From Naegleria gruberi (Eukaryota): 64,000 bases of DNA. How positions within the stretch are numbered: the first letter of the stretch is position 1; every line of letters begins with the position of its first letter. The notes under the pieces are model-generated. The model ran no database searches. It was not told where the DNA came from and worked only from the letters and a program-made list of their open reading frames with translations. Positions 1-62,340 of this stretch are shown in pieces. The position numbers and the translations under genes were made by a program. The stretch lies in assembly GCA_000004985.1 (NCBI GenBank), contig GG738857.1; one strand, given 5' to 3'.

Positions 1-330
1 AAACCCAAACCCAAACCCAAACCCAAACCCAAACCCAAACCCAAACCCAAAGCCAAACCCAAACCCAAACCCAAACCCAAACCCAAACCCAAACCCAAAC
101 CCAAACCCAAACCCAAACCCAAACCCAAACCCAAACCCAAACCCAAACCCAAACCCAAACCCAAACCCAAACCCAAACCCAAACCCAAACCCAAACCCAA
201 ACCCAAACCCAAACCCAAACCCAAACCCAAACCCAAACCCAAACCCAAACCCAAACCCAAACCCAAACCCAAACCCAAACCCAAACCCAAACCCAAACCC
301 AAACCCAAACCCAAACCCAAACCCAAACCC
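1..330. repeat. Telomere-like hexamer array (AAACCC)n, C-rich strand on top as expected at a left chromosome end
   Basis: About 55 perfect tandem AAACCC units run from base 1, with a single A>G variant near position 51. The G-strand reads TTTGGG. The array ends abruptly at ~330 and passes into AT-rich unique sequence. Confidence 0.9.
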
Positions 331-1083
331 AGAACTAAAAATAGAATTCTTCTAAACCCAACCTTCAAACCCTAGCCCAAAATTATAAACTTATTCAAAT
401 ATCATTAAATTTTATATCATTCGATCGGAAATGATGAGTAGAACAACGTAGTATATTTAGTTTTTCAATTTATAAAATATTAACTTTGTAAATAATATCA
501 GATTAAAATTTCATAAATGAAACCATAGGAAGAATGATAATTTCAAAATCCTTTAATGAGATTATATAGTTTATATCATCATAAACAGTATTCATCATTA
601 GGTTCACATGAAATTTCAAAAGTTCAAGTCTGTAGGTATAAAAGTATAGAGTGAAAAGGGAAGTTGTGAGGTACAATAGGTCAACAATAACTTTTGAGTT
701 TCTCATCAAAACATATTAAATCCTGATATGAAAATGTTCCATTTGATGATTATACATCGAATATCAAATTTATTTTAACTTTCATATTTAGAGATTTCTT
801 CCCTCAATCACACATGGTCTACTTTGATGAAAAGGATGAAATCTTGAAAAAGGACCACCTATTGAAACTTTACCAACATGATGTAGATGATATATAATGA
901 TATAGAATTCATTTTCTTATCATAAAAATCAGAAATGGTACCATGGGAAGGTAAATGTTGATATTTTATGGTTGACTTTAGAGAAAGACAAGTCAGACCA
1001 ACTCTATCAAATATATCACTTGCATCAACAATATATACATGAAAATGCTCCATTCGATGAGTAGAGATAGAATATTAAGTTTA
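331..1083. repeat. Subtelomeric telomere-associated element, copy A (cut off by the gap at 1084)
   Basis: The stretch beginning 'caaaccctagcccaa...atcattcgat...gtagaacaa...tttagtttttcaatttataaaatattaactttgt...' recurs at 8281-8886 with about 85-90% identity. Both copies sit directly after a telomere-repeat tract. I see no convincing coding ORF. Confidence 0.8.
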
Positions 1084-2666
1084 NNNNNNNNNNNNNNNNN
1101 NNNNNNNNNNNNNNNNNNNNNNNNNNNNNNNNNNNNNNNNNNNNNNNNNNNNNNNNNNNNNNNNNNNNNNNNNNNNNNNNNNNNNNNNNNNNNNNNNNNN
1201 NNNNNNNNNNNNNNNNNNNNNNNNNNNNNNNNNNNNNNNNNNNNNNNNNNNNNNNNNNNNNNNNNNNNNNNNNNNNNNNNNNNNNNNNNNNNNNNNNNNN
1301 NNNNNNNNNNNNNNNNNNNNNNNNNNNNNNNNNNNNNNNNNNNNNNNNNNNNNNNNNNNNNNNNNNNNNNNNNNNNNNNNNNNNNNNNNNNNNNNNNNNN
1401 NNNNNNNNNNNNNNNNNNNNNNNNNNNNNNNNNNNNNNNNNNNNNNNNNNNNNNNNNNNNNNNNNNNNNNNNNNNNNNNNNNNNNNNNNNNNNNNNNNNN
1501 NNNNNNNNNNNNNNNNNNNNNNNNNNNNNNNNNNNNNNNNNNNNNNNNNNNNNNNNNNNNNNNNNNNNNNNNNNNNNNNNNNNNNNNNNNNNNNNNNNNN
1601 NNNNNNNNNNNNNNNNNNNNNNNNNNNNNNNNNNNNNNNNNNNNNNNNNNNNNNNNNNNNNNNNNNNNNNNNNNNNNNNNNNNNNNNNNNNNNNNNNNNN
1701 NNNNNNNNNNNNNNNNNNNNNNNNNNNNNNNNNNNNNNNNNNNNNNNNNNNNNNNNNNNNNNNNNNNNNNNNNNNNNNNNNNNNNNNNNNNNNNNNNNNN
1801 NNNNNNNNNNNNNNNNNNNNNNNNNNNNNNNNNNNNNNNNNNNNNNNNNNNNNNNNNNNNNNNNNNNNNNNNNNNNNNNNNNNNNNNNNNNNNNNNNNNN
1901 NNNNNNNNNNNNNNNNNNNNNNNNNNNNNNNNNNNNNNNNNNNNNNNNNNNNNNNNNNNNNNNNNNNNNNNNNNNNNNNNNNNNNNNNNNNNNNNNNNNN
2001 NNNNNNNNNNNNNNNNNNNNNNNNNNNNNNNNNNNNNNNNNNNNNNNNNNNNNNNNNNNNNNNNNNNNNNNNNNNNNNNNNNNNNNNNNNNNNNNNNNNN
2101 NNNNNNNNNNNNNNNNNNNNNNNNNNNNNNNNNNNNNNNNNNNNNNNNNNNNNNNNNNNNNNNNNNNNNNNNNNNNNNNNNNNNNNNNNNNNNNNNNNNN
2201 NNNNNNNNNNNNNNNNNNNNNNNNNNNNNNNNNNNNNNNNNNNNNNNNNNNNNNNNNNNNNNNNNNNNNNNNNNNNNNNNNNNNNNNNNNNNNNNNNNNN
2301 NNNNNNNNNNNNNNNNNNNNNNNNNNNNNNNNNNNNNNNNNNNNNNNNNNNNNNNNNNNNNNNNNNNNNNNNNNNNNNNNNNNNNNNNNNNNNNNNNNNN
2401 NNNNNNNNNNNNNNNNNNNNNNNNNNNNNNNNNNNNNNNNNNNNNNNNNNNNNNNNNNNNNNNNNNNNNNNNNNNNNNNNNNNNNNNNNNNNNNNNNNNN
2501 NNNNNNNNNNNNNNNNNNNNNNNNNNNNNNNNNNNNNNNNNNNNNNNNNNNNNNNNNNNNNNNNNNNNNNNNNNNNNNNNNNNNNNNNNNNNNNNNNNNN
2601 NNNNNNNNNNNNNNNNNNNNNNNNNNNNNNNNNNNNNNNNNNNNNNNNNNNNNNNNNNNNNNNNNN
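1084..2666. other. Assembly gap (N run)
   Basis: 1583 consecutive N. Confidence 1.
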
Positions 2667-3083
2667 TCCAAACCCAAACCCAAACCCAAACCCAAACCCA
2701 AACCCAAACCCAAACCCAAACCCAAACCCAAACCCAAACCCAAACCCAAACCCAAACCCAAACCCAAACCCAAACCCAAACCCAAACCCAAACCCAAACC
2801 CAAACCCTAACCCAAACCCAAACCCAAACCCAAACCCAAACCCAAACCCAAACCCAAACCCAAACCCAAACCCAACCCAAACCCAAACCCAAACCCAAAC
2901 CCAAACCCAAACCCAAACCCAAACCCAAACCCAAACCCAAACCCAAACCCAAACCCAAACCCAAACCCAAACCCAAACCCAAACCCAAACCCAAACCCAA
3001 ACCCAAACCCAAACCCAAACCCAAACCCAAACCCAAACCCAAACCCAACCCAAACCCAACCCAACCCAACCTAAACCCAACCA
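2667..3083. repeat. Second telomere-like (AAACCC)n tract, degenerating at its 3' edge (CCCTAACCC and CCCAACCC variants)
   Basis: Perfect hexamers start immediately after the gap. Variant units CTAACCC, AACCCAACC and CCTAAACCCAACC appear at 2808-3083 before unique sequence begins. Confidence 0.9.
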
Positions 3084-3801
3084 GATATTCCTAGTTATTG
3101 AGATATGCGAAGAAAACCTAACTTTTTTTTCATCGAGTACCTATTATCTCTAGAACCACTTTGAGTTTTTATTAGCATATAACAGTTTGTCGATAAAATT
3201 GTACCCTGATTAACATATATAAGATCCAAGTTTTGAATATTAGCCATTAATAAAATGGTAATGGGTTTTCGCCATACCCAAACCCAGACCCAACAATTTG
3301 ACTTTTATTCATCTTAATTCATTATCTCAATAAATACTCATTATAAATCAATATATTATATATCAATATACTCCAAATTGACTATATAATTATATAATAA
3401 CATAATATTTCATCGTTATAATAACTTATATAAGTTAATTTCATATAATAGATTAGACAATTAGAAAATCAATAAAAACATTTCAAAAACATTTCAAATC
3501 AATATATCACCTTATTAATCATGTTAATAACAATATATATCAATTTCAAATACTTTGGTATCATTTCAAGAAATTTACTATTCAACTTGTCAACTGACCT
3601 ATACTAACATTGAAGATAGAAATCTATACCACTTCAATTCACTTCCAATACATCTATATATGTTAATGAAATACAATAATATCAATTTGACATTCATCCA
3701 TATCATACATGGTACATGGCTGATCAACTTGATATCTACAGGGATGTAACTATGACATGTACTATACAGATCATCATGAAAATGATACAGTACCTTACTA
3801 A

Positions 3802-5543
3802 NNNNNNNNNNNNNNNNNNNNNNNNNNNNNNNNNNNNNNNNNNNNNNNNNNNNNNNNNNNNNNNNNNNNNNNNNNNNNNNNNNNNNNNNNNNNNNNNNNN
3901 NNNNNNNNNNNNNNNNNNNNNNNNNNNNNNNNNNNNNNNNNNNNNNNNNNNNNNNNNNNNNNNNNNNNNNNNNNNNNNNNNNNNNNNNNNNNNNNNNNNN
4001 NNNNNNNNNNNNNNNNNNNNNNNNNNNNNNNNNNNNNNNNNNNNNNNNNNNNNNNNNNNNNNNNNNNNNNNNNNNNNNNNNNNNNNNNNNNNNNNNNNNN
4101 NNNNNNNNNNNNNNNNNNNNNNNNNNNNNNNNNNNNNNNNNNNNNNNNNNNNNNNNNNNNNNNNNNNNNNNNNNNNNNNNNNNNNNNNNNNNNNNNNNNN
4201 NNNNNNNNNNNNNNNNNNNNNNNNNNNNNNNNNNNNNNNNNNNNNNNNNNNNNNNNNNNNNNNNNNNNNNNNNNNNNNNNNNNNNNNNNNNNNNNNNNNN
4301 NNNNNNNNNNNNNNNNNNNNNNNNNNNNNNNNNNNNNNNNNNNNNNNNNNNNNNNNNNNNNNNNNNNNNNNNNNNNNNNNNNNNNNNNNNNNNNNNNNNN
4401 NNNNNNNNNNNNNNNNNNNNNNNNNNNNNNNNNNNNNNNNNNNNNNNNNNNNNNNNNNNNNNNNNNNNNNNNNNNNNNNNNNNNNNNNNNNNNNNNNNNN
4501 NNNNNNNNNNNNNNNNNNNNNNNNNNNNNNNNNNNNNNNNNNNNNNNNNNNNNNNNNNNNNNNNNNNNNNNNNNNNNNNNNNNNNNNNNNNNNNNNNNNN
4601 NNNNNNNNNNNNNNNNNNNNNNNNNNNNNNNNNNNNNNNNNNNNNNNNNNNNNNNNNNNNNNNNNNNNNNNNNNNNNNNNNNNNNNNNNNNNNNNNNNNN
4701 NNNNNNNNNNNNNNNNNNNNNNNNNNNNNNNNNNNNNNNNNNNNNNNNNNNNNNNNNNNNNNNNNNNNNNNNNNNNNNNNNNNNNNNNNNNNNNNNNNNN
4801 NNNNNNNNNNNNNNNNNNNNNNNNNNNNNNNNNNNNNNNNNNNNNNNNNNNNNNNNNNNNNNNNNNNNNNNNNNNNNNNNNNNNNNNNNNNNNNNNNNNN
4901 NNNNNNNNNNNNNNNNNNNNNNNNNNNNNNNNNNNNNNNNNNNNNNNNNNNNNNNNNNNNNNNNNNNNNNNNNNNNNNNNNNNNNNNNNNNNNNNNNNNN
5001 NNNNNNNNNNNNNNNNNNNNNNNNNNNNNNNNNNNNNNNNNNNNNNNNNNNNNNNNNNNNNNNNNNNNNNNNNNNNNNNNNNNNNNNNNNNNNNNNNNNN
5101 NNNNNNNNNNNNNNNNNNNNNNNNNNNNNNNNNNNNNNNNNNNNNNNNNNNNNNNNNNNNNNNNNNNNNNNNNNNNNNNNNNNNNNNNNNNNNNNNNNNN
5201 NNNNNNNNNNNNNNNNNNNNNNNNNNNNNNNNNNNNNNNNNNNNNNNNNNNNNNNNNNNNNNNNNNNNNNNNNNNNNNNNNNNNNNNNNNNNNNNNNNNN
5301 NNNNNNNNNNNNNNNNNNNNNNNNNNNNNNNNNNNNNNNNNNNNNNNNNNNNNNNNNNNNNNNNNNNNNNNNNNNNNNNNNNNNNNNNNNNNNNNNNNNN
5401 NNNNNNNNNNNNNNNNNNNNNNNNNNNNNNNNNNNNNNNNNNNNNNNNNNNNNNNNNNNNNNNNNNNNNNNNNNNNNNNNNNNNNNNNNNNNNNNNNNNN
5501 NNNNNNNNNNNNNNNNNNNNNNNNNNNNNNNNNNNNNNNNNNN
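3802..5543. other. Assembly gap (N run)
   Basis: 1742 consecutive N. Confidence 1.
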
Positions 5544-5650
5544 TACACTCCTCTTGATAAGGAGAACAATCTGACAAAGTTTTACATTGATGGCTCTGTA
5601 TCTTACAGTCAACCAATATACCTTAGAATATAGTTTACATTCCATCTCAA
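5544..5650. repeat. ~110-bp dispersed subtelomeric boundary repeat, copy 1 (5' end truncated by gap)
   Basis: 'tacactcctcttgataaggagaacaatctga.aaagtttt.acattgatggctc.gtatcttacagtcaaccaatataccttagaatatagtttacattccatctcaat' recurs almost identically at 11303-11410. Confidence 0.8.
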
Positions 5651-6857
5651 TCATTTCAAAGAGTTATTGATCAATTCCAACACCAGTATGTTACTCACAC
5701 ATTATAGTACAATTCATATTTCAAGAGTGATTTCTAAGATAAAGTTGATGGAAGTGAGTGCCAAATGGCACATTCACTTCCAATATAGTAGTAAGCTTTG
5801 TTAATCCTTTCGATTCTGAGCCATTTTCACATCAACTTGAATCTATTTTTAACTTTTCCGCGCGTTTTTCGGTTTGATCAACCGGCAAAAATACTTTTGA
5901 TCAAGTGATTTTATTACCACTAGCCACCATCATAACTTGATATATATAAATATTTAACAATTTCACATCAGCCGTATATTGTGCCCCATTACAATCACCA
6001 TCTTTTGACATCATTTGTGATATATATTGTTAATGTATTTAAGGAGAAAAGCTTAATAAATAGGGGTTGACATGGGATCCAAAACCCTGAGTTCTGCATC
6101 TCAAATAAAGTGTAATTTCATCAAATTATATAATTTCATTTCAAGAAATGCATTCAGTAGATAGTACATGGTGATATTTCAAGAGAATGGCTGAAAATCT
6201 GAAAGATATAGAAACAACTACATTTTCACTGAAATTGATATCATGGTATGTAGACACTCTAATTAGCATATGGTATCAATTTCATGAATATTGGCTCAGT
6301 ACATGTTGAGATATCAACTCTATCACTGTACTATAGACATTTGACATGATATCATAGATTAAACTCCAACTCACTCATTTTACGTACAATCAGTATAGAA
6401 ATGATGCTAAATAATCTACACATCTATAAAATACATCTACAATAGTTTAAAAACGTTTCAAACTACTTTCATAAAATTAATCAGTAAATGTTCAATGTCA
6501 ATCCTAGGTATACCATAGTGAACACTTCATCTCAGTGAAAGTACATCCAATCATCCTATAACTTTACCAGATACGTCTAATCACACTATTGTACATATTG
6601 TATTAATTTTAGATATTCTGAATAGAAATTAACTTGATAATAATAACAATCTGTCAAAAAAGTAACTTTTCAATATATAGAATACGCTCTAGCTCATTCA
6701 GTTTGTATAATATCAAACAAGTATGAAACATGAACACATTCCTATTGGTGATAGGTACAATCTGAGAAAGATTCATTGTGAAGTAGTTGGGACTTGTCAT
6801 CATACAAGAATTGAATCAAGTATCCATTTACTTGGATTGAACTTTACATAAGCACCC

Positions 6858-7827
6858 CGGGTTTGAGCCACACCAAGCTCATTTGAGAAAGTGTAATTTA
6901 ATTTTACGACGGGTTTGAGCCACACCATGTTCATTTGAAACAATTTCAAGTCGTTTTTACATCGGGTTTGACGACAACCACTGTTTTAAAGATAACATTT
7001 GTGAAAAATCGACTGATCTCAATCATTATTAAGAATTTGAGTATACTCCAATGGAATGTTACCATCTACATACAGTTTAGAACATTTTCCATCCCCTTGT
7101 AAAAATTCCTTAATAATTTTGAACTATTCAAAGTTCAGTAAGAATGCAAAAATTTTAATTTGTTGTATAGTATAATACAGTATCATCAAAAAGTTGGATA
7201 ACTCATTCTTTTGAAAAGAAGCAACGGGTTTGAGCCACTCCACGTTCATTTGAAACAATTTCAAAAAGTTTTTACATCGGGTTGGATGACAACCATTGTT
7301 TTAAAGATTACAGTTGTGAAAAATCGACTGATCTCAATCATTTCTGAGAATTTAAGTATACTGTAAAGGACTGGTACCATTTCTATCGAGTTTTGAACAT
7401 TTTCCATCTACTTGAAAAAATTCCTTACTAATTGTGAAGTAAGAAAAGTTCAGTAAGAATGTAAAAATTTTAATTTGTTGTATAGTATAATACAGTCTTG
7501 TCAAAAGGTTGGATACGTCACTCTTTCGAAAAGAAGCAACGGGTTTGAGCCACTCCACGTTCATTTGAAACAATTTCAAACAGTTTTTACATCGGGTTGG
7601 ATAACAACCATTGTTTTAAAGATTACAGTTGTGAAAAAATGGCAAATCTCAATCATTTTTGAGAATTTAACTATACTGTAAAAGACTGTCACCATTTCCA
7701 TCGAGTTTTGAACATTTTCCAATCACTTGTAAAAAATTCTTAATAATTGTGAACTACTCAAAGTTCACTAAGATAGAAATATTTCATAAACTTATAGTTC
7801 CTTATGTAAGGAATTGTCAAAAGGTCT
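6858..7827. repeat. 315-bp satellite array A, about 3 units, truncated by the gap at 7828
   Basis: The motif 'gggtttgagccac.cca.g.tcatttgaaacaatttcaa..gtttttacatcgggtt.ga..acaacca.tgttttaaagat.aca.ttgtgaaaaa' recurs at 6911, 7226 and 7541, an exact 315-bp period. A shorter partial unit sits at 6858. Confidence 0.85.
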
Positions 7828-7877
7828 NNNNNNNNNNNNNNNNNNNNNNNNNNNNNNNNNNNNNNNNNNNNNNNNNN
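7828..7877. other. Assembly gap (N run)
   Basis: 50 N. Confidence 1.
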
Positions 7878-8190
7878 ACCCAACCCAAACCCAAACCCAA
7901 ACCCAAACCCAAACCCAAACCCAAACCCAAACCCAAACCCAAACCCAAACCCAAACCCAAACCCAAACCCAAACCCAAACCCAAACCCAAACCCAAACCC
8001 AAACCCAAACCCAAACCCAAACCCAAACCCAAACCCAAACCCAAACCCAAACCCAAACCCAAACCCAAACCCAAACCCAAACCCAAACCCAAACCCAAAC
8101 CCAAACCCAAACCCAAACCAAAACCATACCCAAACCCAAACCCAAACCCAAACCCAAACCCAAACCAAAACCAAACCCAAACCCAACCAA
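7878..8190. repeat. Third telomere-like (AAACCC)n tract
   Basis: Perfect hexamers begin at the gap edge. Variants CCAAAACCATACCC and CCAAAACC appear near 8115-8170. Confidence 0.9.
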
Positions 8191-8280
8191 AAACCTAAAA
8201 ACCCAAACCTAAAAACCCAAACCTAAAAACCCAAACCTAAAAACCCAAACCTAAAAACCCAAACCTAAAAACCTAAAAAT
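8191..8280. repeat. 14-bp (CCTAAAAACCCAAA)n telomere-derived micro-array
   Basis: 'cctaaaaacccaaa' occurs 5 times in tandem, followed by 'cctaaaaacctaaaaat'. It lies at the junction between tract 3 and subtelomeric element copy B. Confidence 0.8.
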
Positions 8281-8886
8281 ATTTAAGTCCAGACCCAATG
8301 TTTCAAAGTTCAAACCCTAGCCCAATTTATTGATTATTATATCATTCGATTGTAAATGATGAATAGAACAATGTATTATATTTAGTTTTTCAATTTATAA
8401 AATATTAACTTTGTTAATAGTGTCAGATTAAAATTTGTAAAATGAAACTATAGGAAGAATGATAATTTCAAAATCCTTTAATGAGATTATATAGTATATA
8501 TCATCATTAACAACATCTATAATCACTCTCATATCAAATTTCAAAAGTTCAAGTCTGTAGATATAAAAGTATAGAGGGAAAAGGGAAGTTGTGAGGTAAA
8601 AGAGGTCAACTATAACTTTTGAGTTTCTCATCAAAACATATTAAATCCTGACATGTAAATGTTCCATTTGATGAGTAAACATCGAATATCAAATTTATTT
8701 TAACTTTCATATTTACAGATTTCTTCCCTCAACCATCATGGTCAACTATGATGAAAAGGATGAAATCTTGAAAAAGAACCACCTATTGAAACTTTACCAT
8801 AATAATGTAGATGATATATAATGATATAGAATTCAATTTCATATCATAAGAATCAGAAATGGGGCCATGGGAATGTAAATGTTGAT
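8281..8886. repeat. Subtelomeric telomere-associated element, copy B (cut off by the gap at 8887)
   Basis: Alignable to 331-1083 with the same landmark strings, for example 'tttagtttttcaatttataaaatattaactttgt' and 'ggaagaatgataatttcaaaatcctttaatgagattatatagt'. Confidence 0.8.
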
Positions 8887-8936
8887 NNNNNNNNNNNNNN
8901 NNNNNNNNNNNNNNNNNNNNNNNNNNNNNNNNNNNN

Positions 8937-9860
8937 TTACGTAAGCACACCGGGTTTGAGCCACACCAAGCTCATTTAAGAAAGTTTAATTTAATTTTAC
9001 AACGGGTTTGAGCCAGTCCATGGAGTTGTTAGTAAAGAGTGGTTGGATGAAATCACTGTTTCAAAGATAACAGTTGTGAAAAATCGACTAATCTCAATCA
9101 TTATTAAGAATTTGAGTATAGTTCAATGGAATTATACCATCTATAGCCAGTTTTGAACATTTTCCATCGACTTGTAAAAATTCCTTAATAATTAGGATGA
9201 AGGAAAAGTTCACTAAGAAAAGACAATGTTAATTTGTTGAACAGTATTGTACAATCCCCACCTAAAGGTTGAATAAGTCACTCTTTTGAGAAGAAGCAAC
9301 GGGTTTGAGCAACTCCAAGCTCATTTGAAACATTTTCAAAAAGTTTTTACATCGGGTTGGATGACAACCACTGTTTTAAAGATTACAGTTGTGAAAAATA
9401 GACTGATCTCAATCATTATTGAGAATTTAAGTACACTTTAAAGGACTGCCACCATTTCCATCGATTTTGGAACATTTTCCATCTACTTGAAACAATTCCT
9501 TAATAATTGTGAAGTAAGAAAAGTTCAGTAAGAAAAAATAAATTTCAGTTTGTTGTATAGTTAATACATTCTCATTCAAAAGGTTGGATAAGTCTCTTTT
9601 TTGAAAAGAAGCAACGGGTTTGAGCCACTCCAAGCTCATTTGAAACAATTTCAAACAGTTTTTACATCGGGTTGGATAACAACCATTGTTTTAAAGATTA
9701 CAGTTGTGAAAAAATGGCAAATCTCAATCATTTCTTAGAATTTAACTATGCTGTAACGGAATGTTACCATCTACAGCAATTTTAGAACACTTTCCATCTA
9801 CTTGAAACAATTCCTTAATAATTATGATGCAAGCAAAGTTCACTAAGAAAAGAATATTTC
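8937..9860. repeat. 315-bp satellite array B, 3-4 units, same family as 6858-7827
   Basis: 'gggtttgagcc' anchors at 8952, 9004, 9301 and 9616. The 9301 to 9616 spacing is 315 bp and the unit sequence is about 90% identical to array A. Confidence 0.85.
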
Positions 9861-11295
9861 AAAAACTTATTGTTGGTGGAATGATTCTGCACAACTATAG
9901 AGCATCTCCTTGTTCTGATATTGTACATGTGGATATTAGTAAAAAAACCACCTATAACAAAATTTTTTGTTTTGGTCCAACAGATGATGAGAAATGGCAC
10001 TTGTAAATGTTGAAAATAATGTTATACCAATTCTGCACCATACACAACTTGGCTACTTATCCATCAGTTACAAAATGATGATACAATTGAAATAAATATC
10101 ATATCTCAATTTAAATATAGAGATGGTCAATTAAGGTACCTCAATAGGGAAGTACCCTAAGGACAATGAGATTCATTACCAAATTGATACAATATGTTAA
10201 TAACATCATATAATGAGGTTTCTATCAATTTCGTATCATTTGGACATCATTCAGTATTCATGCCATTTAACCATGTCACTAACTACTCATGATAATATGA
10301 CAAGTCAATATCAAGATGTTCAACAAGATAGAATATCATTCAAATACTCTTATAATTGATATTCATAACGTATTTGAGTGATACAAATCAATATCTATAT
10401 AATTGGACTATCTGTCAAGCTACTGTCCTAATTGACAAAAAGGTAACATTCTTACATGTCATGAATGGTAATAATCAACACCAATTCAATACTATCATGT
10501 TATAATCATCAAATACTCTCATCGAATCAATTTTGGAATGATTTCAATATCATCTTAGATAGTTATCATATGACAAAGTTACTACCTTAGTGAACTACCC
10601 ACGTCATTAATAAATGTCTAAAACCAAATCTTTCAATTATATATTCATATATATATCAATTATAGTGTATAATATCAGTTTTATAATATATAATCAATTA
10701 TTGGTATGATCGCAATATTTCAATTAAACATTGACATTGCAACATTTCTCAAATTGGAAATATAGGTCATAACATCATGATATTCAACATTTAGTGATAA
10801 AGTAAAACGATGACATATATTATCCAATAAAATATTCAGATCCCTTTAAAAGTGTTAACCACATCAAAAGCTCCCCTATTGCCATCCAAGTTGACTTCCA
10901 AAAGTCTCAAAATGGATACAATCATGATTTTTTCAGTGATATATGATTACCATTCATATTCACTACTGTATTTATCAGTATTATTGAATTTTATTGTGTT
11001 TCCATATTATAGGTCAACATCTTGATCAATTAATCATTTACTAGTAGAAAAGCTACAAGGAAATGTTTCTCTCTAGTCACCACCCAATAACCTCCTCTTC
11101 ATGAAGAAGAGTTCCAAATCAACCTTGTTCACTTTCAATATGTTGAATTAATGCAACCACTTTCCCATTCTTCTATCAAGTGTTGTCACAATAAGAAGCT
11201 TCTGATTCGTATCAACAATAAACAATTTCAAAATCTTAAATCAATAAGAGATTGGAGTAAGAGGTATCCGAGGTTCTCCTAACCAAACCCAATAT

Positions 11296-11410
11296 GAATA
11301 CACTCCTCTTGATAAGGAGAACAATCTGAGAAAGTTTCACATTGATGGCTCAGTATCTTACAGTCAACCAATATACCTTAGAATATAGTTTACATTCCAT
11401 CTCAATTGTA
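11296..11410. repeat. ~110-bp dispersed subtelomeric boundary repeat, copy 2
   Basis: Near-identical to 5544-5650. It lies at the transition from gene-free subtelomere to the first gene. Confidence 0.8.
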
Positions 11411-11575
11411 GTAGATCTCGTCTCTCATGTCTTTACGATACAAGAGACGATAATAAATATTACAATTTATTTTTTAGAATAGTTGTAATTTATTAACTAG
11501 ACATATTCAATGAATAATTCTTAATTTCAGCAAAGTAGTCTGATTTGCAATATTCAAGATAATTCTTTAAGTTAG

Positions 11576-13003
11576 TCAATTATTAGTTTGTGGCACATCC
11601 TCCGCAAAAAGAATCTCTAAATCTTTAGATATTCCATTAACGAGTTGGAACGCCTTTCTACTAGCTCCACTTTCCGTACCTGGATTGTAGTAATAATCTC
11701 GAATGTAAAAGAGTTTCTTACTACAGCCCGTTAGGTATTGAAACAAAAAATCCACAAGCACTTCAGCATCATTGGTTCCATGACCTAATATTTTCTCAAT
11801 CTGTTCGAGATAGTTTGTATCAAATGTGAGATAGAGTGTTTTTGAATTTTTTGGATTGTCGAAATATAAGGATAAATCTCCATCAACGAATGGATTATCT
11901 CCATTAAAGTATTCCCATTTGTATTTCAAATAAAAAAATTCAAACTGTTCTTCAAGATTTCCCCTTATTTTGAGTGTAAATTCGACCATTTCGTAATACT
12001 CTACTCCCCTAAAAACTCGAATGACATCCACTTTAGAACATGGAGTAATGTCGTTGGAAATAGGTAAGGGTTTTCTCTTCTTTTGGTTGATCTCTGCTAT
12101 TCTCATACAGGACAAGTTTTTGGCACTTGATTGAATGAATTCCAATATTGAAATGATTGATGCAACGTTAGTTATCTTTTCAATCATTTGCGATCCAAAG
12201 TTGATTCCTTTCATACTATTCGCATTTGTGCACCATCCAAACCTGTTGAGCTCTATACTGCCAGTTCCTCCATTTAAATATTTCATAATGATAAATGCAA
12301 TGTTCTGATGATGCTCTCTTGGAAGAAGAGTGGTAATAAATTCTTTCACATTCTTATTGGATCCAAAAAGAGTTTCACTAAATACCTGATCTATTTCGTG
12401 TTTTTGGACATACACTATATTTCTAGATTGGCCAACTGTTTCAAAATGAATAAGAACTGTGCCATTACAAGAAACCACAATCTTTTTAAGATTTGTAGAT
12501 TGAAAATGTGTCAAGTCGATATTAATCAATACACATTCATCTGAATCTCTTTTGGGAAACTTTAAAACATATGCAAAAAAAGAAGAATTTCCAGTGTTGG
12601 CTTCATCTTTACAAAATATGGACCGCAAAAGATTCCTCTCCATTAATTCATTGCTGTTCCAGAAATCAATTTCAGCATTCAATCTATAAATAATACCATA
12701 CAGGAAATTCCTCTTATCCACTTCAGAATCAAACTCATCACATGCATTTTTCATTAAAACAACATTTTTCCTAGAATGATGATGATATTCAAAATTACAA
12801 CTGCTATCCATAATATCTTGTATTGATTTACATGTGGCATACAATGAGCATTGATCAGCCAAAGTGGAAAAGCTACAAATTTCATCTAAAATTCCTAATT
12901 CTATCGGAAAGCAATTTATCACCGCTGTTGTGCTGTATGATGATTCATTTGAAACCTTCCGAATTTTCTGTCCTTCATATTTGCCAGCTTTGTCTTCTTT
13001 CAT
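11576..13003 (-). CDS. F-box-like domain protein (475 aa), function unknown
   Basis: Uninterrupted 475-codon ORF with AT-biased third positions. The N-terminal region carries an F-box-like motif, 'FPIELGILDEICSFSTLADQCSLYATCKSIQDIM'. I recognise nothing else in it. Confidence 0.6.
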   Translation of the reverse strand: MKEDKAGKYEGQKIRKVSNESSYSTTAVINCFPIELGILDEICSFSTLADQCSLYATCKSIQDIMDSSCNFEYHHHSRKNVVLMKNACDEFDSEVDKRNFLYGIIYRLNAEIDFWNSNELMERNLLRSIFCKDEANTGNSSFFAYVLKFPKRDSDECVLINIDLTHFQSTNLKKIVVSCNGTVLIHFETVGQSRNIVYVQKHEIDQVFSETLFGSNKNVKEFITTLLPREHHQNIAFIIMKYLNGGTGSIELNRFGWCTNANSMKGINFGSQMIEKITNVASIISILEFIQSSAKNLSCMRIAEINQKKRKPLPISNDITPCSKVDVIRVFRGVEYYEMVEFTLKIRGNLEEQFEFFYLKYKWEYFNGDNPFVDGDLSLYFDNPKNSKTLYLTFDTNYLEQIEKILGHGTNDAEVLVDFLFQYLTGCSKKLFYIRDYYYNPGTESGASRKAFQLVNGISKDLEILFAEDVPQTNN

Positions 13004-14962: not shown

Positions 14963-15119
14963 TTTTTTTTAAATGATTTTTGCATTGTGATTAATAATAA
15001 ACAAGCATTTTAACATGTTGTTCAATGTGAATGTTCAATTTCATGTTCCACCACAGTACCTTAAAGTTGACGACACTGAAGCTCCAACTCAGAAATTTTG
15101 AAAATTCAATTTGTAAAGA

Positions 15120-15870
15120 AAAATTTCAAAAATATTGGAACAACCAGTCCATCACGACTCTGTTGATTCTTGGAGTAGTTTCACATCTATTAACTCCAAG
15201 AATTTCACCACATCATCTCATCATCATTTAAATAATAGTATTAATAGTAATTTTTGGAATTTAGTCCTTCATCATGATTTGGAAATTATTTTATTATTTG
15301 GAAAAATTCAAGTTGATAAACCAGCATCGGAACAACTACCAACCATCATCATTGTTATTTTCCATCATTATAATAGTAATATTTGTGGACTATAAATCTG
15401 ATAATAGTAATATTTTAGTGAAATTCAATATTTTCACTAAAATCATCATCACTGCCAGATTTATATGATAATTTGGAAAACTTTCAATCTAGTATTGTTC
15501 AGCATGGTCGATTTCATCAGGTAAAATCACTTCCTACCATTTTCCTATTGATTATCATCATGATAATTTTTGAACCATATCTCAACATGTACTTCACCAA
15601 CTTGGAAAATGTCTTTCATCAACTATTCAAATACATAATAACAATATATTTATTATCAGATTTTCATCATTTTGTTGTTTTACCAACTTCCGAAAATTCA
15701 TGGTCGCCAATCATGATTCATGCCAAAAGTACACAACCAATCATCTTGAAACATTAATAAACTGTTATTAGTATTAATGTAGATGCAACACCAATTATTT
15801 CGTTTTAATTGGTTGAAATCATAAAGATATTAATTTTTCTGTTTTTAATTTAAATTTCACATCACCTACA
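15120..15870. repeat. ~750-bp dispersed non-coding repeat, copy 1 (second copy at 23770-24510)
   Basis: The two copies are about 90% identical over ~700-750 bp. Landmarks: 'ttaactccaagaatttcaccacatcatctcatcatcatttaaataatagtattaa' and 'cagcatggtcgatttcatcaggtaaaatcacttcc'. Only short ORFs without coding periodicity are present. Confidence 0.8.
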
Positions 15871-23089: not shown

Positions 23090-23769
23090 TTTTTAAGTGT
23101 GTGTGGAATGAGTTGTGTTTGATCGTGGCGATATTTATAGTGAATGAAGAGTGTGATAATGCTGTTAAGAAGGACACAAGAATAGAATGAGTAAGGACAA
23201 CTTTGTGGAGTTCTCCTTACTATGTCCATTTTAGAAGTGTTAATTAATTTGGACATTTGACTCCGCATTTTAATGGCACGCTCCCAAATATTCCCCATAA
23301 GAAAAGAATCAAAAGTGAATATGCACTTTGTAATCAATGGATCTGATTAATAATACGCACTCATGAGTGAAAATAATGTGCACTTCAAATGTGCAGTGGA
23401 GTTTCAACTATTTTTCGCTCCGTTGCTTTTCAAACTCCGAACAAAGATTGTTGGCGTTTTTACAAACAAGCGTTTCATAATATGATGTGGCATTATGAGA
23501 ATAATTGTAAATTATTAAGGAAACCCTCTGTGAATTGATTGGCAATTTAGGAGTAAATGAATTAAATCTTGGAGCATTGAAAGAAGGTATTCCAGATTGT
23601 GATTTACAACCTTGAGAATCAATAGACAGCTCAATAAGACAAGCATATTTTTAATAATGATGTTATGCGCCAATATTAATCACACAGTAGCCATTCCAAT
23701 TTTCACCACTTACCTTTTTTGAGGTTATTAAAGGACATGGAAATATTTCTTAAAAATATTAGATCAACA

Positions 23770-24510
23770 TCAGGTATATCATGCCTGTGTTGATTCTTGG
23801 TGTAATTTCACATGTATTAACTCCAAGAATTTCACCACATCATCTCATCATCATTTAAATAATAGTATTAACAGTAATTTTTGGAATTTAATCCTTCATC
23901 ATGATTTGGAAATAATTTTATTATTCGGAAAAATTCAAGTTGGTACATCATCATCGGAACAACTACCAACCATCATCATTGTTATTTATCATCATTATAA
24001 TAGTAATATTTGTGGACTATAAATCTTATAATAGTAATATATTAGTGAAATTCAATACTAAAATCATCATCACTGCCAGATTTATATGATAATTTGGAAA
24101 ACTTTCAATCTAGTATTGCTCAGCATGGTCGATTTCATCAGGTAAAATCACTTCCGAACATTTCCCTATTGATTATCATCATGATAGGTACATGTATATT
24201 TTCAAAATGTACTTGAACCATATCTCAACATGTACTTCACCAACTTGAAAAATGTCTTTATCACTACTATTCAAATACATAATAACAATATATTTATTAT
24301 CAGATTTTCATCATTTTGTGTTTTTGTCAACTTCGGGTTATTCATGGTCACCAATCATGATCCATGCCAAAAGTACACAGCCAATCATCTTGAAACATTA
24401 ATAAACTTTTATTAGTATTATTGTAGATGTACCATATCAATTATTTCGTCTTGTCAAGATTTGGATTTTTCTGTTTTTCATTAAATTTCACATCACCTAC
24501 ATTGTCTCCT
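23770..24510. repeat. ~750-bp dispersed non-coding repeat, copy 2
   Basis: See the 15120-15870 entry. Same orientation, intergenic. Confidence 0.8.
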
Positions 24511-24788
24511 ATGATGAAAAGTATATAGGTAGGACGTAAGCAATACATAGTCGATACTCTATTCATTGTTTGCTGTTTTATGGTGTATTCGAGATTTTGA
24601 AATCTTGAGAAATATCCAGAGGTCATTCACTGAATAATTATAATTCCTCTTTCAATGGAAAGGAATAAAATTGGCATGAGCTTGCAACAAATGAGTTTCC
24701 ATAACAATATGTTTTGCATAAGCAATTATTAGTTTAAATTCCAACTTAAAGGTTGATTTCTAAAAATAAGGTGCTGTTGTATACCTTG

Positions 24789-25259
24789 TTATTCATTAGG
24801 TTGAATTTGTTGAGATTCTTGTGAGATTAGTCTAGTTTCCACACTCGTCACCTCTTCAATTCCCATACCACAAATAGTATTTACATAAAATTCCATATTC
24901 GATTCACAGCCAGTCATTAATATTTCCACAATTTTATCATTCTTCACCATAAATTCCACAATTTCTCCTTCATTATTCGAAACTTTCACGTAATGCCATT
25001 CCTCCTCCGAATATAAACTTTCAAATTTATAATTTTTCTTCTCCACAACCGGCACATACTGTGTTGTTTTTGCTAATTGAATTGTTTCATATGTATCTCC
25101 AGTGAAAATATCAACTCCGCATAAATATGCTTTTTTGGTTCCGTGTCTTCCTGTTTTTTGAAAAAAACAAGTCAATATTTTGCAAGGATTTCCATTGATG
25201 AGAAGATAACTTCCCTTTTTGATTTTATCTGATTCGATGGTGTGAGTGTAAGATTTCAT
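24789..25259 (-). CDS. Translation initiation factor eIF5A paralogue 1, with hypusine-site Lys replaced by Arg
   Basis: Over most of its length the DNA is near-identical to copy 2. It has the conserved eIF5A core, 'NGNPCKILTC..KTG(K/R)HGTKKAYLCGVDIFTGD'. Here the hypusination codon reads AGA (Arg), 'TGRHG', and there is a one-residue insertion 'FFQ'. I take the start as the internal Met 'MKSYTH'. The upstream in-frame Met at 25310 seems unlikely. Confidence 0.75.
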   Translation of the reverse strand: MKSYTHTIESDKIKKGSYLLINGNPCKILTCFFQKTGRHGTKKAYLCGVDIFTGDTYETIQLAKTTQYVPVVEKKNYKFESLYSEEEWHYVKVSNNEGEIVEFMVKNDKIVEILMTGCESNMEFYVNTICGMGIEEVTSVETRLISQESQQIQPNE

Positions 25260-25336
25260 TTTTTTTTGATTGTTTTTTTGTAAATTGCAAATTGAAAATT
25301 GCATCAACAAGTGTTATCAAGTAACAATGAATTCAT

Positions 25337-25386
25337 NNNNNNNNNNNNNNNNNNNNNNNNNNNNNNNNNNNNNNNNNNNNNNNNNN
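25337..25386. other. Assembly gap (N run) between the two eIF5A copies
   Basis: 50 N. Confidence 1.
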
Positions 25387-25522
25387 ATCTGAATCAATGA
25401 ACAATTTAGAAGCAAATGAATCTTGGAGCATTGAAAGAAGGTATTCCAGATTGTGATTTACCATCTTGAGAATAAATAGACCTGTTAATGGGTTGATTTA
25501 AAAATACCTAAATTTCAATTTG

Positions 25523-25990
25523 TTATTCATTTGTTTGAATTTGTTGAGCTTCTTGTGAGATTAGTCTAGTTTCCACACTCGTCACCTCTTCAATTCCCAT
25601 ACCACAAATAGTATTTACATAAAATTCCATATTCGATTCACAGCCAGTCATTAATATTTCCACAATTTTATCATTCTTCACCATAAATTCCACAATTTCT
25701 CCTTCATTATTCGAAACTTTCACGTAATGCCATTCCTCCTCCGAATATAAACTTTCAAATTTATAATTTTTCTTCTCCACAATCGGCACATACTGTGTTG
25801 TTTTTGCAAATTGAATTGTTTCATATGAATCTCCGGTGAAAATATCAACTCCACATAAATAAGCTTTTTTGGTTCCGTGTTTTCCTGTTTTTTGTAAACA
25901 AGTCAATATTTTGCAAGGATTTCCATTGATGAGAAGATAACTTCCCTTTTTGATTTTATCTGTTTCGATGGAGTGAGTGTAAGATTTCAT
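25523..25990 (-). CDS. Translation initiation factor eIF5A (155 aa), canonical
   Basis: Full eIF5A signature including the hypusine loop 'KTGKHGTKKA' (AAA Lys codon) and the C-terminal OB-fold region. Single exon. Confidence 0.9.
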   Translation of the reverse strand: MKSYTHSIETDKIKKGSYLLINGNPCKILTCLQKTGKHGTKKAYLCGVDIFTGDSYETIQFAKTTQYVPIVEKKNYKFESLYSEEEWHYVKVSNNEGEIVEFMVKNDKIVEILMTGCESNMEFYVNTICGMGIEEVTSVETRLISQEAQQIQTNE

Positions 25991-26208
25991 TTTCAGTTTC
26001 GAATTTTTTTTTGATTGTTTTTTGAAAAATGCAAATTGAAAATTACATCATCAATACGTGTGACAATCTTGAAACTCCACTCTTGCCAATTGCTCTTCAT
26101 GAATTTTAACACCAAACATTTTGAATTTCTTTGAACTGTTAGTATTCGATAAATTAGTATGTTAATTTAACAAAAATTTCCCGCTCAATTCCAAACATCC
26201 AAAAAAAA

Positions 26209-29200
26209 ATGTCTCTCCAAATCAAAGCCCTCACACGCTCACTGCATGTTCTGATGATGTTATGTTTGATAATGATGATCATTGTGATGGAGGGCAATTT
26301 TATTTCCTCCGAATTATTACTGAACAATGATAAATTTCGAATACGTGATGATCACGAAAATGTACTAAATTATATGAGGAGGAAAGCCTTGAGTAGTTGG
26401 GAAAATGATGATCAAATGATGATGGAAAATTCAAATCAAATATTGTTGAATGATTCCGATGCCAGTGGTGTTGTTATTAGTAATAACAGCAGCACTATTC
26501 CAAATATATTTTATTTAAATACTAATATTCCGACCATTAATAATGCATCATCTTTAAATTGTAATAATATTTCGAATCCTTGTACGAAAGGATCACAAAT
26601 TTTAAATTATTTCTATGAAAATTTAGTTTACAAGACGGATAGTATTGATGTTTATGTGATTGGCAATTTGACAGATTGTTTTGATGGGACTGACAGATCG
26701 AATTCCTCCACAAGTAATTTATTAACAATGCGGCTGATAGGTCAAGATCCTAATCAATATTCCTATATGAATTGCAACATGAGATTATTATTTACAAATG
26801 TCTATTTTCATTACTTTAACCTTTACAAATATGATGTGAAAAATTTGAATACAGTAGGATTTGTGAATTGTAACATTAATTCAGTGAATGGAGATGAAAA
26901 AATTGAAACTGGAAAGTTAGTAATACGAAACTCAATTTCTAGGAACTCTAATTTTGAGACTACTAGTGTAGTGGATATTGACAAATTTGTCATGATTGAA
27001 AGTGATTTGAAAGTTTTCTTTCATGATCTGTATTTTTGGAAATCAAGATTTCTGACAGTTAATACTCTTAATAATTCTTTATTTGTGGATAGTTCAATAG
27101 AGTTGAATAGATTGTCAATGGTAGCAGTTGAAAATAGCAGATTCGAGAGATCTCAATTAACTGCTGTTTACCTATCCGCTTTGGAAATCAATAATTGTAC
27201 AGTATACGAAACTGTGAGATGGCTACGATTGAAAGGAACTATTCTCTTATCTCTAGAGAACAGTGTCATTAGTGAGAGTCCATACGACTCATCGAGTAAG
27301 GGAATTATAGAATCAATATTATCGAGCTATATTCACATTAACCAGTGTAAATTTCTTTCCAATAACAATATAGCAGTTTATGTGGACGAAACTGGTTTCT
27401 TCCATACGAGAAAATCGTTATTTAGTAATAATTTGGGGGCTGTATATATTGGAGAAATAGTTAACTTGGGAGATGTATTAACTGGAGTCCATATTATATC
27501 ATCCACATTTTCAAGAAACTTTGGAGTAAATGGTGGTGCCATAACTCTTCCCAACACAACTAGTGAAATATTTCGTTGTGAATTTTATGCAAATATTGCT
27601 CAAGCAGGAGGTGCAATTTTTTCCACTTCTGGTGAATTGAACATACTCAACAGCATCTTTGAAGAAAATCATGCTTTTTATTCTCCTTCATGTCCCACTC
27701 CATTTTGTGGAAGAGGAGGAGCCATCTATGCTCAAAACCCAATTCTTTTAAATATTGACTCTAAAAACACTTTCCGTAGAAACTATGCAAGAGATGGAGG
27801 CGCAATTTATGTTGATATTTATGATGACAATGAATTCTGGAAATCATGGATTTTAGTACTGAACTGTTTAGAAAACTCTGCAACCTTTTATGGAGATTGT
27901 TTTTATTCGAAACAAGATATGAAAGAACATGATTTTCTAAAAATTTTAAAGAACTCTCCAAATGCATTAGGTTCTTCTAAATTAACAATTGTGGACGTCA
28001 AACCAAGCTCCCTTGAAGTATATCCAGGTCAGAAAGCATCCATAGCTTTGACTATTATGGATGGGTTCAATAATACTTTACAAAAGCTGCAAACACAACC
28101 AGTAATAGCGAGCTCAGATCCTGGAGTAGCATTTCAGACATTTTTTGAAAATACCACATTCACCATCTCTCTACAAGTTACTAATCACAATACCACCTCA
28201 GCTGTGGCTTCATTTTATGTTGGAGAAGCAAATGTTAACATTACTGTCAAAATCATACCATGCCCAGATGGCTATTCATTAGTTAATTATTCTGCATCAG
28301 AAACAAGCAAGAGATTGTGCCTCAAAAATCCTGATCCACCACTCCATATCATTTTACCAGCTATTTTTTCAAGTATAATATTGTTCATTGTTGGAATCTT
28401 GTTGGGAATTTTAATAATATATCTAGGTTGGAATATTAATGAAAAGTTGAAACGTCTCAAGAAAAAGGAGAAGGCTGAAAAGAACTTGGCTCAGCGTCTT
28501 GTTGATAAGCAAGTTATCTTTTCAGAAAACAATGAGTTGAATCCATCAACAGATCTAAAGACGTCACTATTGGGAAGCTATTATGCCAACAGTCAAGGAT
28601 CCTCTTCATCTGGAAAGAATAGAAAAATTAAGGAGAAAATTAGGATGCAAGCAGAGCAAAACTATTTAATTCCAATAGAAAATATTGATATTGTTCGAAA
28701 AATTGCTGAAGGAGCAAATGGCATCGTATACCTCGGGAAATGGCTTGGCACTGAAGTTGCTATGAAGAGCTTGAAATTGGAATATGTTACGGAAGAGGAG
28801 AATGAGGAATTTGAAAAGGAGGCAGCATTATTGAAATCCCTTAAACACCCAAATATTGTCACCAGTTTTGGCGTTTGTATGAGTGGAAATATTAAATACA
28901 TGATTGTGGAATACATGCCAAGAGGAAGCTTGGACAGGGCAATTTATCAATCTAGAACTGGAGCTCAAATACTCAAATTGAAACAAAAAGTGAATATCCT
29001 TCTTGGAGTTGCAAACGGTATGAACTATTTACACTCTCTTAAACCATATAGTATCATACATAGAGATTTGAAACCTGGAAACATTTTGCTTGATCATAAT
29101 TTATCAAGTAAGGTAACAGATTTTGGACTCTCCAAAATTATAGGAGGAAATTCTACCAACACAATGACTACAGCACTGGGAACTTTATTTTACATGAGGT

Positions 29201-29658
29201 GAGTTGTTTAATTTAACTTTGGTTATAAGAATAACAATAGTCCTGAGATTCTAGGTGCAGACAGTCCAAGTGAATTCTCAACCAAGCTCGATGTCTATAG
29301 TTTTGCAATCATCATGTACGAGCTGATGTTTGAAGAATCTCCTTATTTAAATCACAAATCGCAAAAGATTTACAGATTCATCACACCCAATACTAACACT
29401 GAAAATCCTTTCAATATTCCAACTAAAGTGGTAAAGGGATTGAGACCTACCATTCCATTTTCATCCCTAGAAGAGCAGTATATTTGGATAGAGGAATTTG
29501 TTCTTCCTAGAGAACCAGAGATGGATGTTCAAATTGTTTCGAACGTATTTTCATTATTTATCGATTTGATGATTGAATGTTGGAGTGGAAAAGCTCAAGA
29601 AAGGCCAGATTTTGGAGAAATTTCCGAAAGATTAGGTGAAATGTTGAGAACATTATAG
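26209..29658 (+). CDS. Receptor-like Ser/Thr protein kinase: signal peptide, PMP/β-helix-repeat ectodomain, TM helix and kinase domain (2 exons)
   Basis: Exon 1 is 26209..29198 and exon 2 is 29241..29658. The 42-bp intron, 29199-29240, runs GTGAGT...AG and splits the kinase 'SPE' (APE) motif. Splicing restores '...GTLFYMSPEILGADSPSEFSTKLDVYSF'. The ectodomain has repeated 'GGAI(Y/F)' motifs (PMP-type right-handed β-helix repeats). The TM helix is 'ILPAIFSSIILFIVGILLGILIIYLGW'. The kinase motifs are GxGxxG-like 'IAEGANGIVY', 'VAMKSLK', 'HRDLKPGNILLD' and 'DFGLS'. Confidence 0.8.
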
Positions 29659-39891: not shown

Positions 39892-40042
39892 NNNNNNNNN
39901 NNNNNNNNNNNNNNNNNNNNNNNNNNNNNNNNNNNNNNNNNNNNNNNNNNNNNNNNNNNNNNNNNNNNNNNNNNNNNNNNNNNNNNNNNNNNNNNNNNNN
40001 NNNNNNNNNNNNNNNNNNNNNNNNNNNNNNNNNNNNNNNNNN
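39892..40042. other. Assembly gap (N run) inside the lectin-EGF-GPCR gene
   Basis: 151 N. Confidence 1.
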
Positions 40043-62266: not shown

Positions 62267-62340
62267 TGCCTCCCTTGGGAATCGAACCCAAGACCTCTGT
62301 CTTACTAGGACAGCGCTACTGCCAACTGAGCTAGGAAGGC
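62267..62340 (-). tRNA. tRNA-Thr (anticodon AGU)
   Basis: The reverse complement reads GCCTTCCTAGCTCAGTTGGCAGTAGCGCTGTCCTAGTAAGACAGAGGTCTTGGGTTCGATTCCCAAGGGAGGCA. It has a 7-bp acceptor stem with one G-U pair, an anticodon stem CTGTC/GACAG around loop CTAGTAA, a T-arm TTGGG/CCCAA with a TTCGATT loop, and discriminator A. Confidence 0.9.

Follow-up and report, generated by a model that had tools for sequence, protein, structure and literature searches.

Three telomere repeat tracts at the start of a Naegleria gruberi scaffold: a probable case of stacked chromosome termini

The window analyzed here, a stretch of 64,000 nucleotides, is the start of a 573-kb (573,072-bp) scaffold of Naegleria gruberi. 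An open reading frame (ORF) in the window that encodes a glycosyl hydrolase of family 63 was 100% identical, in a protein comparison, to NAEGRDRAFT_57460 from the 573,072-bp scaffold. The distal part of the window is a mosaic of telomere repeats, subtelomeric blocks and runs of N, some of which have counterparts in an external contig, L001 (GCA_006365155.1). From the left end to the first protein-coding gene, for which paralogues exist, the features are as follows.

1..330, plus strand: telomere tract 1, (CCCAAA)n, which opens the scaffold; 53 perfect units and one variant, at 52
331..1083, plus strand: subtelomeric element A, copy 1; AT-rich, core 91% identical to 8281-8886 and 93% identical to L001
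1084..2666, no strand: sized scaffold gap, a run of 1583 N
2667..3083, plus strand: telomere tract 2, first in its contig, right after the gap; degenerate units at its right edge
3084..3801, plus strand: sequence B, adjacent to tract 2 and unrelated to A; holds a 24-bp telomere relic (3271-3294)
3802..5543, no strand: sized scaffold gap, a run of 1742 N
5544..5651, plus strand: repeat D, distal copy, which starts its contig; 97% identical to 11299-11406
5652..6843, plus strand: block X; its part 6091-6405 recurs to the right of the A element in L001
6844..7827, plus strand: 65-bp leader and 2.7 copies of a 315-bp satellite (Tandem Repeats Finder); 85% identical to 8937-9874
7828..7877, no strand: floor-size gap, a run of 50 N
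7878..8190, plus strand: telomere tract 3, first in its contig, right after the gap
8191..8280, plus strand: telomere-derived 14-bp variant array, five copies of CCCAAACCTAAAAA (array 8198-8270), at the telomere/subtelomere boundary
8281..8886, plus strand: element A, copy 2 (A'); the contig stops where the other two copies run on
8887..8936, no strand: floor-size gap, a run of 50 N
8937..9874, plus strand: 65-bp leader and 2.6 copies of the 315-bp satellite; the contig is homologous to 6844 onward from its very first base
11281..11292, plus strand: short telomere relic, AACCAAACCCAA, directly distal to repeat D
11299..11406, plus strand: repeat D, proximal copy; the first gene is 170 bp away
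11576..13003, minus strand: first protein-coding gene of the scaffold; its product matches, at 100% identity, a predicted protein of N. gruberi from the 573,072-bp scaffold

Across the whole window, exact (CCCAAA)n runs are confined to the three long tracts, and the exact-run search returned no runs of TTTGGG, CCCCAA or CCCTAA. Tandem Repeats Finder delineated period-6 arrays at 1-331 (55 copies, 99% matches), 2668-3080 (70 copies, 97% matches) and 7878-8269 (64 copies, 88% matches). Both searches thus bear out the first-pass annotation, which had placed (AAACCC)n tracts at 1-330, 2667-3083 and 7878-8190, all with the C-strand on top; in tract 1, the G-strand accordingly runs 5' to 3' toward the left end. 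With at most one mismatch allowed, the telomere 12-mer matches the window 167 times, against 0.86 matches expected from shuffled sequences. As in a terminal telomere, the repeat is short, tandem, strand-asymmetric and far more abundant than expected by chance; tracts 2 and 3 begin their contigs with the same polarity as tract 1 at the scaffold start; and the distal repeats are homogeneous, with variant units concentrated at the right-hand (centromere-side) edges. The share of perfect units is 96% in tract 1 and 88% in each of tracts 2 and 3, and the tracts measure 313-417 bp within their contigs. The inner edges follow different variant patterns in the three tracts. Tract 1 ends abruptly: perfect units continue through position 330, and older relics lie 20-50 bp farther inward; tract 3 grades into the 14-bp variant array, which is homologous to a short relic in L001. 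The decayed edge variants had been taken as a sign of old interstitial telomeric DNA; the variants are real but do not discriminate between the readings discussed below, because the inner part of a genuine terminal telomere shows such variants just as typically.

The TTTGGG hexamer is, as had been noted, an uncommon telomere type, yet it has been published for this species: it was proposed as the N. gruberi telomere repeat in 2013 from assembly termini only, and its terminal position was, according to the authors, still to be confirmed experimentally (Fulneckova et al. 2013, PMC3622300). Nanopore data and a re-assembly of the N. gruberi genome have been published (PMC12695648); telomeres are not mentioned in the N. 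fowleri nanopore assembly paper or in the Naegleria pangenome paper.

The claim that a common element lies behind tracts 1 and 3 held up. Positions 1-962 align with 7887-8886 at 87% identity when the telomere repeats are included and at 91% in the non-telomeric core, and identity among the three copies of element A, the one in L001 included, is 91-94%. The element has a degenerate internal tandem period of about 310 bp. Whereas A' stops at 8886, A extends at least 120 bp beyond the corresponding point in the first contig of the scaffold and about 530 bp beyond it in L001, where X-type sequence follows (X 6091-6405 is 88% identical to L001 over 315 bp). In L001, the telomere of the A element is reduced to about 18 bp (1144-1161), and 1.1 kb of non-telomeric DNA that contains D (D-like sequence at 2-53) lies distal to the decayed telomere-A junction. 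Element A thus occurs both at a terminus and internally, and the decayed telomere within L001 indicates that former telomeres do become internal in this lineage. Sequence B (3084-3801) has no match to A in the self-comparison of the window and is distinct from the element that follows tracts 1 and 3. BLAST comparison of blocks B, X, Y and A under relaxed scoring yielded AT-rich noise only, scans for Rfam families and tRNAs were negative for the subtelomeric part of the window and for L001, and neither a 38-mer from element A nor a 27-mer from the 315-bp satellite had a match in the genome and viral collections.

All three long tracts lie at the extreme left edge of their own contigs, none of the contigs in the window ends on the right with telomere repeats, and no non-telomeric base is seen to the left of any long tract. 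The first-pass annotation held that every tract abuts an N gap, which is correct for tracts 2 and 3, with N directly to the left of each (1084-2666 and 7828-7877), but not for tract 1, which begins the scaffold. The window has seven gaps, three of which consist of exactly 50 N, a value that looks like a floor, and the tract-3 contig, 1009 bp long, is set between two such gaps. Tracts at contig edges that face gaps, together with minimum-size gaps on both sides of an inserted contig, are the marks of a scaffolding or collapsed-homologue artefact. Non-telomeric DNA is seen to be contiguous on both sides only for the short relics (3271-3294, 11281-11292 and L001 1144-1161). The two relics in the window have the orientation of the tracts and lie within continuous sequence, and the one at 11281-11292 is the only exact match to the telomere 12-mer outside the tracts. 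Telomere-like motifs are restricted to the first 11.3 kb of the window and to one direction, with the exception of a short match at 58199 that is probably due to chance.

On balance, these observations suggest that a real N. gruberi NEG-M chromosome end lies at the start of the window and that the three tracts are true termini of different molecules stacked by the scaffolder, a reading that we consider probable, if by no means secure. Each long CCCAAA tract would then be the inner few hundred bases of a terminal (TTTGGG)n array, synthesized by telomerase and with its G-strand directed to the left. The source molecules could be structurally different homologues of a single end in a tetraploid, heterozygous strain or, alternatively, paralogous ends that have subtelomeric blocks A, X, the 315-bp satellite and D in common. 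Strain NEG-M has been described as tetraploid, and Naegleria as heterozygous with frequent aneuploidy, so that up to four different tips per chromosome end are possible. Every contig composed of telomere and subtelomere would be linked by paired ends to the same inner sequence, and a scaffolder that builds one consensus path would order these contigs by distance from the inner anchor, which is expected to produce tracts of the same orientation at left contig edges, each facing a gap.

The spacing around the tract-3 contig points in the same direction. If the gap to its left truly were 50 bp or less, reads should have merged the two contigs; if it is larger than 50 bp, the scaffold distances are wrong. 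The contig at 8937 begins exactly where homology to 6844 begins, so the homology probably extends leftward into X-like sequence; together with the continuation of A beyond 8886, this predicts about 1.3 kb of DNA for a scaffold slot of at most 50 bp. Reads of Sanger length should have crossed an internal tract of 313-417 bp. These are arguments from read length and assembler behavior in general rather than from the reads of this particular assembly. The different variant patterns at the inner edges are what would be expected of independent telomeres and not of copies of one unit.

Several observations run against stacking and would fit instead a layout that is real, with long internal telomere tracts in series on one chromosome end, that is, stacked telomere-capped modules; we regard this as possible but distinctly less probable. 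Such a series could originate if a capped end were extended by subtelomere capture, through break-induced replication or end fusion, with a tract left behind each time. The same-orientation relics at 3271-3294 and 11281-11292 within continuous sequence are compatible with such a history, as is L001, where D-type DNA lies distal to a decayed telomere-A junction whose relic is homologous to the 14-bp variants of tract 3. The concentration of telomere-like motifs in one direction within the first 11.3 kb, apart from 58199, is also in its favor, and the sized gaps (1583 and 1742 N) imply that the clone links agree with one another, as a true serial order would have it. However, the proven internal relics are 12-24 bp long and decayed, whereas the long tracts measure 313-417 bp and are 88-96% perfect; the left flank of every long tract lacks any non-telomeric base; and telomere repeats are missing from the right end of the contig that precedes tract 3, despite a gap set at no more than 50 bp. 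The units that follow the tracts are unlike as well (A, B and A', about 2.7, 5.2 and >3 kb), with A after tracts 1 and 3 and the unrelated B after tract 2, and with three units that vary in both length and content, there is no support for a simple tandem repetition of a single unit, of the kind formed by Y' elements. The first-pass annotation had offered a genuine array and chromosome-end contigs scaffolded head-to-tail as alternatives and made no choice between them; either may hold, and the evidence leans toward scaffolding or collapsed homologues given the left-edge tracts, the floor-size gaps, the insufficient space after the tract-3 contig and tetraploidy.

Two further explanations appear much weaker. 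A culture could contain a mixture of shortened versions of one end, with breaks healed by new telomeres and the versions merged by the assembler; tetraploidy and long clonal culture would provide the opportunity for such variants, and the abrupt junction of tract 1, with older relics 20-50 bp inward, also speaks for it. We nevertheless consider this scenario improbable: tracts 2 and 3 pass gradually into degenerate units and the 14-bp array, which indicates old junctions rather than fresh healing, element A meets tracts 1 and 3 at homologous positions, a match that would not arise from random breakage, and B beside tract 2 is not seen running on from any longer version. It is more doubtful still, to the point of being hardly credible, that element A, perhaps like B, is mobile and targets telomeres, carrying or acquiring telomere repeats at one end, so that units of tract and element accumulate head-to-tail. 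Element A is conserved and multi-copy, with 91-94% identity among its three copies, and is found in both terminal and internal positions, but A, B and L001 contain no ORF longer than 84 amino acids, whereas a telomere-specific retrotransposon would be recognized by a reverse-transcriptase or Gag ORF or, in a non-autonomous copy, by a poly(A) tail. A spurious ORF in A had the ORF of L001 itself as its sole relative in the protein collection; on a plain reading of the sequence, as distinct from a systematic search, neither a poly(A) tail nor terminal repeats were apparent; and the degenerate tandem structure of A, with its period of about 310 bp, is what satellite-like subtelomeric DNA typically shows.

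If the tracts are stacked termini, a local error is flagged at the start of a reference scaffold, and caution is called for when internal telomere blocks are counted in the N. gruberi assembly. If, conversely, the serial order is true, N. gruberi chromosome ends would consist of stacked modules, each with several hundred bases of near-perfect telomere repeat. Capped ends would then have been extended often and recently through the capture of subtelomeres, or the ends of this tetraploid amoeba would be maintained by recombination. This would amount to unusually active chromosome-end remodeling in a heterolobosean, of moderate interest for telomere biology and no new kind of system. The analysis also provides a first sketch of the parts of a Naegleria subtelomere, namely element A, the 315-bp satellite, repeat D and telomere relics.

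Among known systems, the telomeres of Paramecium are mixed TTGGGG/TTTGGG and have the TTTGGG unit in common with the tracts in the window; unlike in Paramecium, the tracts contain no CCCCAA units, and the window has long ORFs in the standard genetic code. A ciliate origin, to which the TTTGGG unit might point, was rejected, since the ORF statistics agree with the standard code and the protein match is to N. gruberi. With the candidate N. gruberi telomere itself, the window shares the species, the assembly, the hexamer, and the terminal position and polarity at a scaffold end; that survey reported the motif alone and described neither adjacent elements nor scaffolds with several tracts (PMC3622300). 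As at the boundaries of yeast Y' arrays and human subtelomeric duplicons, head-to-tail tracts of one polarity separate subtelomeric blocks, and the short decayed relics at those boundaries have counterparts at 3271, at 11281 and in L001. The internal tracts of yeast and human are short or degenerate with both flanks present, whereas the long tracts here lack a left flank in the sequence, and what separates them is not a set of copies of one element. A serial arrangement would be comparable to human subtelomeric telomere islands and to the tracts between yeast Y' elements. Stacked termini would instead resemble the stacked haplotype contigs of heterozygous or polyploid scaffolds, in which alternative versions follow in succession, separated by minimum-size gaps, with breaks at repeats and, as proposed here, a common orientation imposed by mate-pair anchors. 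Stacked haplotypes are usually recognized by near-identical duplicated flanks, whereas the pieces stacked at this scaffold start would be divergent alternative termini, A and A' being 91% identical.

Three period-6 CCCAAA arrays, at 1-331, 2668-3080 and 7878-8269, were identified by reading the sequence of positions 1-12000 and by Tandem Repeats Finder, in agreement with the three telomere-repeat tracts reported in the first-pass annotation. Across the whole 64 kb, exact CCCAAA runs are limited to these tracts, and there are no runs of TTTGGG, CCCCAA or CCCTAA anywhere. With at most one mismatch allowed, the telomere 12-mer yields 167 matches against 0.86 expected; all telomere-like motifs lie within the first 11.3 kb, except for a single short match at 58199 that is probably due to chance. 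The share of perfect units is 96% in tract 1 and 88% in each of tracts 2 and 3; variant units are concentrated at the right-hand edges, and the three tracts differ from one another in the variant patterns at their inner edges. Tract 3 grades into a 14-bp derivative, CCCAAACCTAAAAA, present in five copies at 8198-8270. Short relics of the same polarity occupy 3271-3294 and 11281-11292; the second lies immediately on the distal side of a copy of the 108-bp repeat D.

The scaffold start consists of five contigs delimited by N runs:

C1, 1-1083: tract 1 and the AT-rich subtelomeric element A
C2, 2667-3801: tract 2 and sequence B
C3, 5544-7827: repeat D, block X and 315-bp satellite
C4, 7878-8886: tract 3 and element A', the second copy of A
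C5, 8937-25336: 315-bp satellite, block Y, repeat D and genes

The gaps are, in order, 1583, 1742, 50 and 50 N; given that a gap of exactly 50 N is seen three times in the window, this size looks like a floor value. Each long tract sits at the far left edge of its contig; within 1-12000 no contig carries telomere repeats at its right end. Contrary to the first-pass annotation, tract 1 does not abut an N gap but opens the scaffold.

The previously noted association of tracts 1 and 3 with copies of one element was confirmed: C1 1-962 aligns with C4 7887-8886, with 91% identity in the non-telomeric core, element A. Similarly, C3 6844-7799 aligns with C5 8937-9874 at 85% identity over a 65-bp leader and the 315-bp satellite. 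The two satellite arrays (6909-7773 and 9041-9856; 2.6-2.7 copies each, 82-87% matches) both begin after this common leader, and the tract-3 contig sits between them. The copies of D, at 5544-5651 and 11299-11406, are 97% identical; a weaker third copy is located within block X, at 6727-6775, and 170 bp separate the first gene from the proximal copy (11299-11406), which is preceded by the 12-bp telomere relic. Sequence B, the 718 bp following tract 2, matches neither A, nor the 315-bp satellite, nor D; the three tract units therefore do not represent repeats of a single unit.

When metagenome contigs were scanned with a 37-mer taken from A, a single one matched, L001 (VFQN01031297.1, assembly GCA_006365155.1; 2627 bp). 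Its left end holds D-like sequence at 2-53, together with another match to the left part of C3. After ~1.1 kb of different DNA come two short telomere relics (TAACCAAACCC and TTAACCAAACCCAAACC) and an A element that shares 93-94% identity with each window copy; ~410 bp separate this element from a stretch 88% identical to window 6091-6405. The presence of D-like, A and X-type blocks in one contig points to an amoeba of the N. gruberi complex in the sequenced sample. The 14-bp variant repeats adjoining tract 3 align with the relic in L001. From these alignments it follows that A is a conserved multi-copy family that normally extends well beyond the point where C4 stops and is followed by X-type sequence, and that a former telomere beside A can turn internal and decay.

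The two alternatives put forward earlier, an interstitial array or scaffolded chromosome ends, stand, with the balance tilting toward an assembly effect: on indirect grounds, it appears somewhat more probable than the opposite that the three tracts are separate chromosome termini stacked in one scaffold. The left-edge position of the tract in each contig, the lack of contigs ending in telomere repeats and the differing inner-edge variants of tracts 1-3 all count for stacking. Sanger-length reads should have bridged the 313-bp tract 3 plus a gap of at most 50 bp between C3 and C4; if that gap is larger, the scaffold distances are unreliable. Furthermore, C4 stops where A runs on in C1 and L001, and homology to C3 sets in with the very first base of C5, so that an A extension plus X-like DNA totalling ~1.3 kb is predicted where the scaffold leaves at most 50 bp. 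NEG-M has been described as tetraploid, and Naegleria as heterozygous with aneuploidy; thus, a single chromosome end can have several coexisting tips of different structure, and clone mates would anchor all of them to one and the same inner sequence.

A true series of tracts on one chromosome end is possible but rather unlikely: the short relics do lie in series, L001 provides a precedent for an internalised telomere, and the two sized gaps imply consistent clone links, but the relics proven to be internal measure 12-24 bp and are decayed, whereas the disputed tracts span 313-417 bp and are nearly perfect. Heterogeneity of one end generated by breakage and healing seems improbable. A telomere-associated mobile element is highly improbable, considering that A, B and L001 contain no ORF longer than 84 aa and that A has a satellite-like structure with a period of about 310 bp.

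The end structure we propose combines the observed polarity, layout and homologies of the tracts and blocks with telomerase synthesis and an exchange mechanism drawn from general telomere biology. Tract 1 would represent the inner portion of a (TTTGGG)n array synthesised by telomerase, with the G-strand toward the left end, and tracts 2 and 3 probably have the same origin; inner units would not be renewed, so that variants build up. The AT-rich, non-coding blocks adjoining the tracts (A, X, the 315-bp satellite and D) may be common to chromosome ends and reshuffled among them, and the short relics could mark sites where an older tip gained another subtelomere.

The window has a G+C content of 33%, long ORFs under the standard code and ordinary eukaryotic domains; the first gene (11576-13003) encodes an N. 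gruberi predicted protein, and the ORF at 53310-55910, a glycosyl hydrolase of family 63, shows 100% identity to NAEGRDRAFT_57460 of Naegleria gruberi, located on a contig of 573,072 bp. The window therefore opens a scaffold of the published draft of strain NEG-M. Direct repeats at 24786-25310 and 25520-26054 (93.5% identical over ~530 bp) flank the floor-size 50-N gap at 25337-25386 and may represent either tandem paralogues or a single region assembled in two uncollapsed versions next to each other. Another direct repeat, of ~750 bp (15118-15870 and 23740-24501, 87% identical), encloses ~7.9 kb with a PARP-domain ORF, a 1014-aa ORF without a Pfam match and a CRT-like transporter gene. A very large ORF (34410-41041, minus strand) combines many EGF-like repeats with an RGS domain at the C-terminus; a 351-bp tandem repeat (38854-39728) lies within this ORF and a 151-N gap (39892-40042) splits it, so the repeat number is probably misassembled. 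The 997-aa ORF at 26209-29202 (plus strand) carries a protein kinase domain at the C-terminal end and, in its N-terminal part, a weak match to the Chlamydia polymorphic membrane protein repeat. A tRNA-Thr (AGT; 62267-62340, minus strand) is the sole Rfam or ARAGORN match in the window.

The published NEG-M draft comprises 1977 contigs in 784 scaffolds, and a nanopore data set already exists for N. gruberi. Our search for literature on Naegleria telomeres or subtelomeres found nothing besides Fulneckova et al. 2013 (PMC3622300), who noted that internal blocks also occur in many genomes and that a terminal location has to be proven by experiment. Using public assemblies, the same authors named TTTGGG as an unexpected candidate telomere repeat of N. 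gruberi; hence, the hexamer itself is not new.
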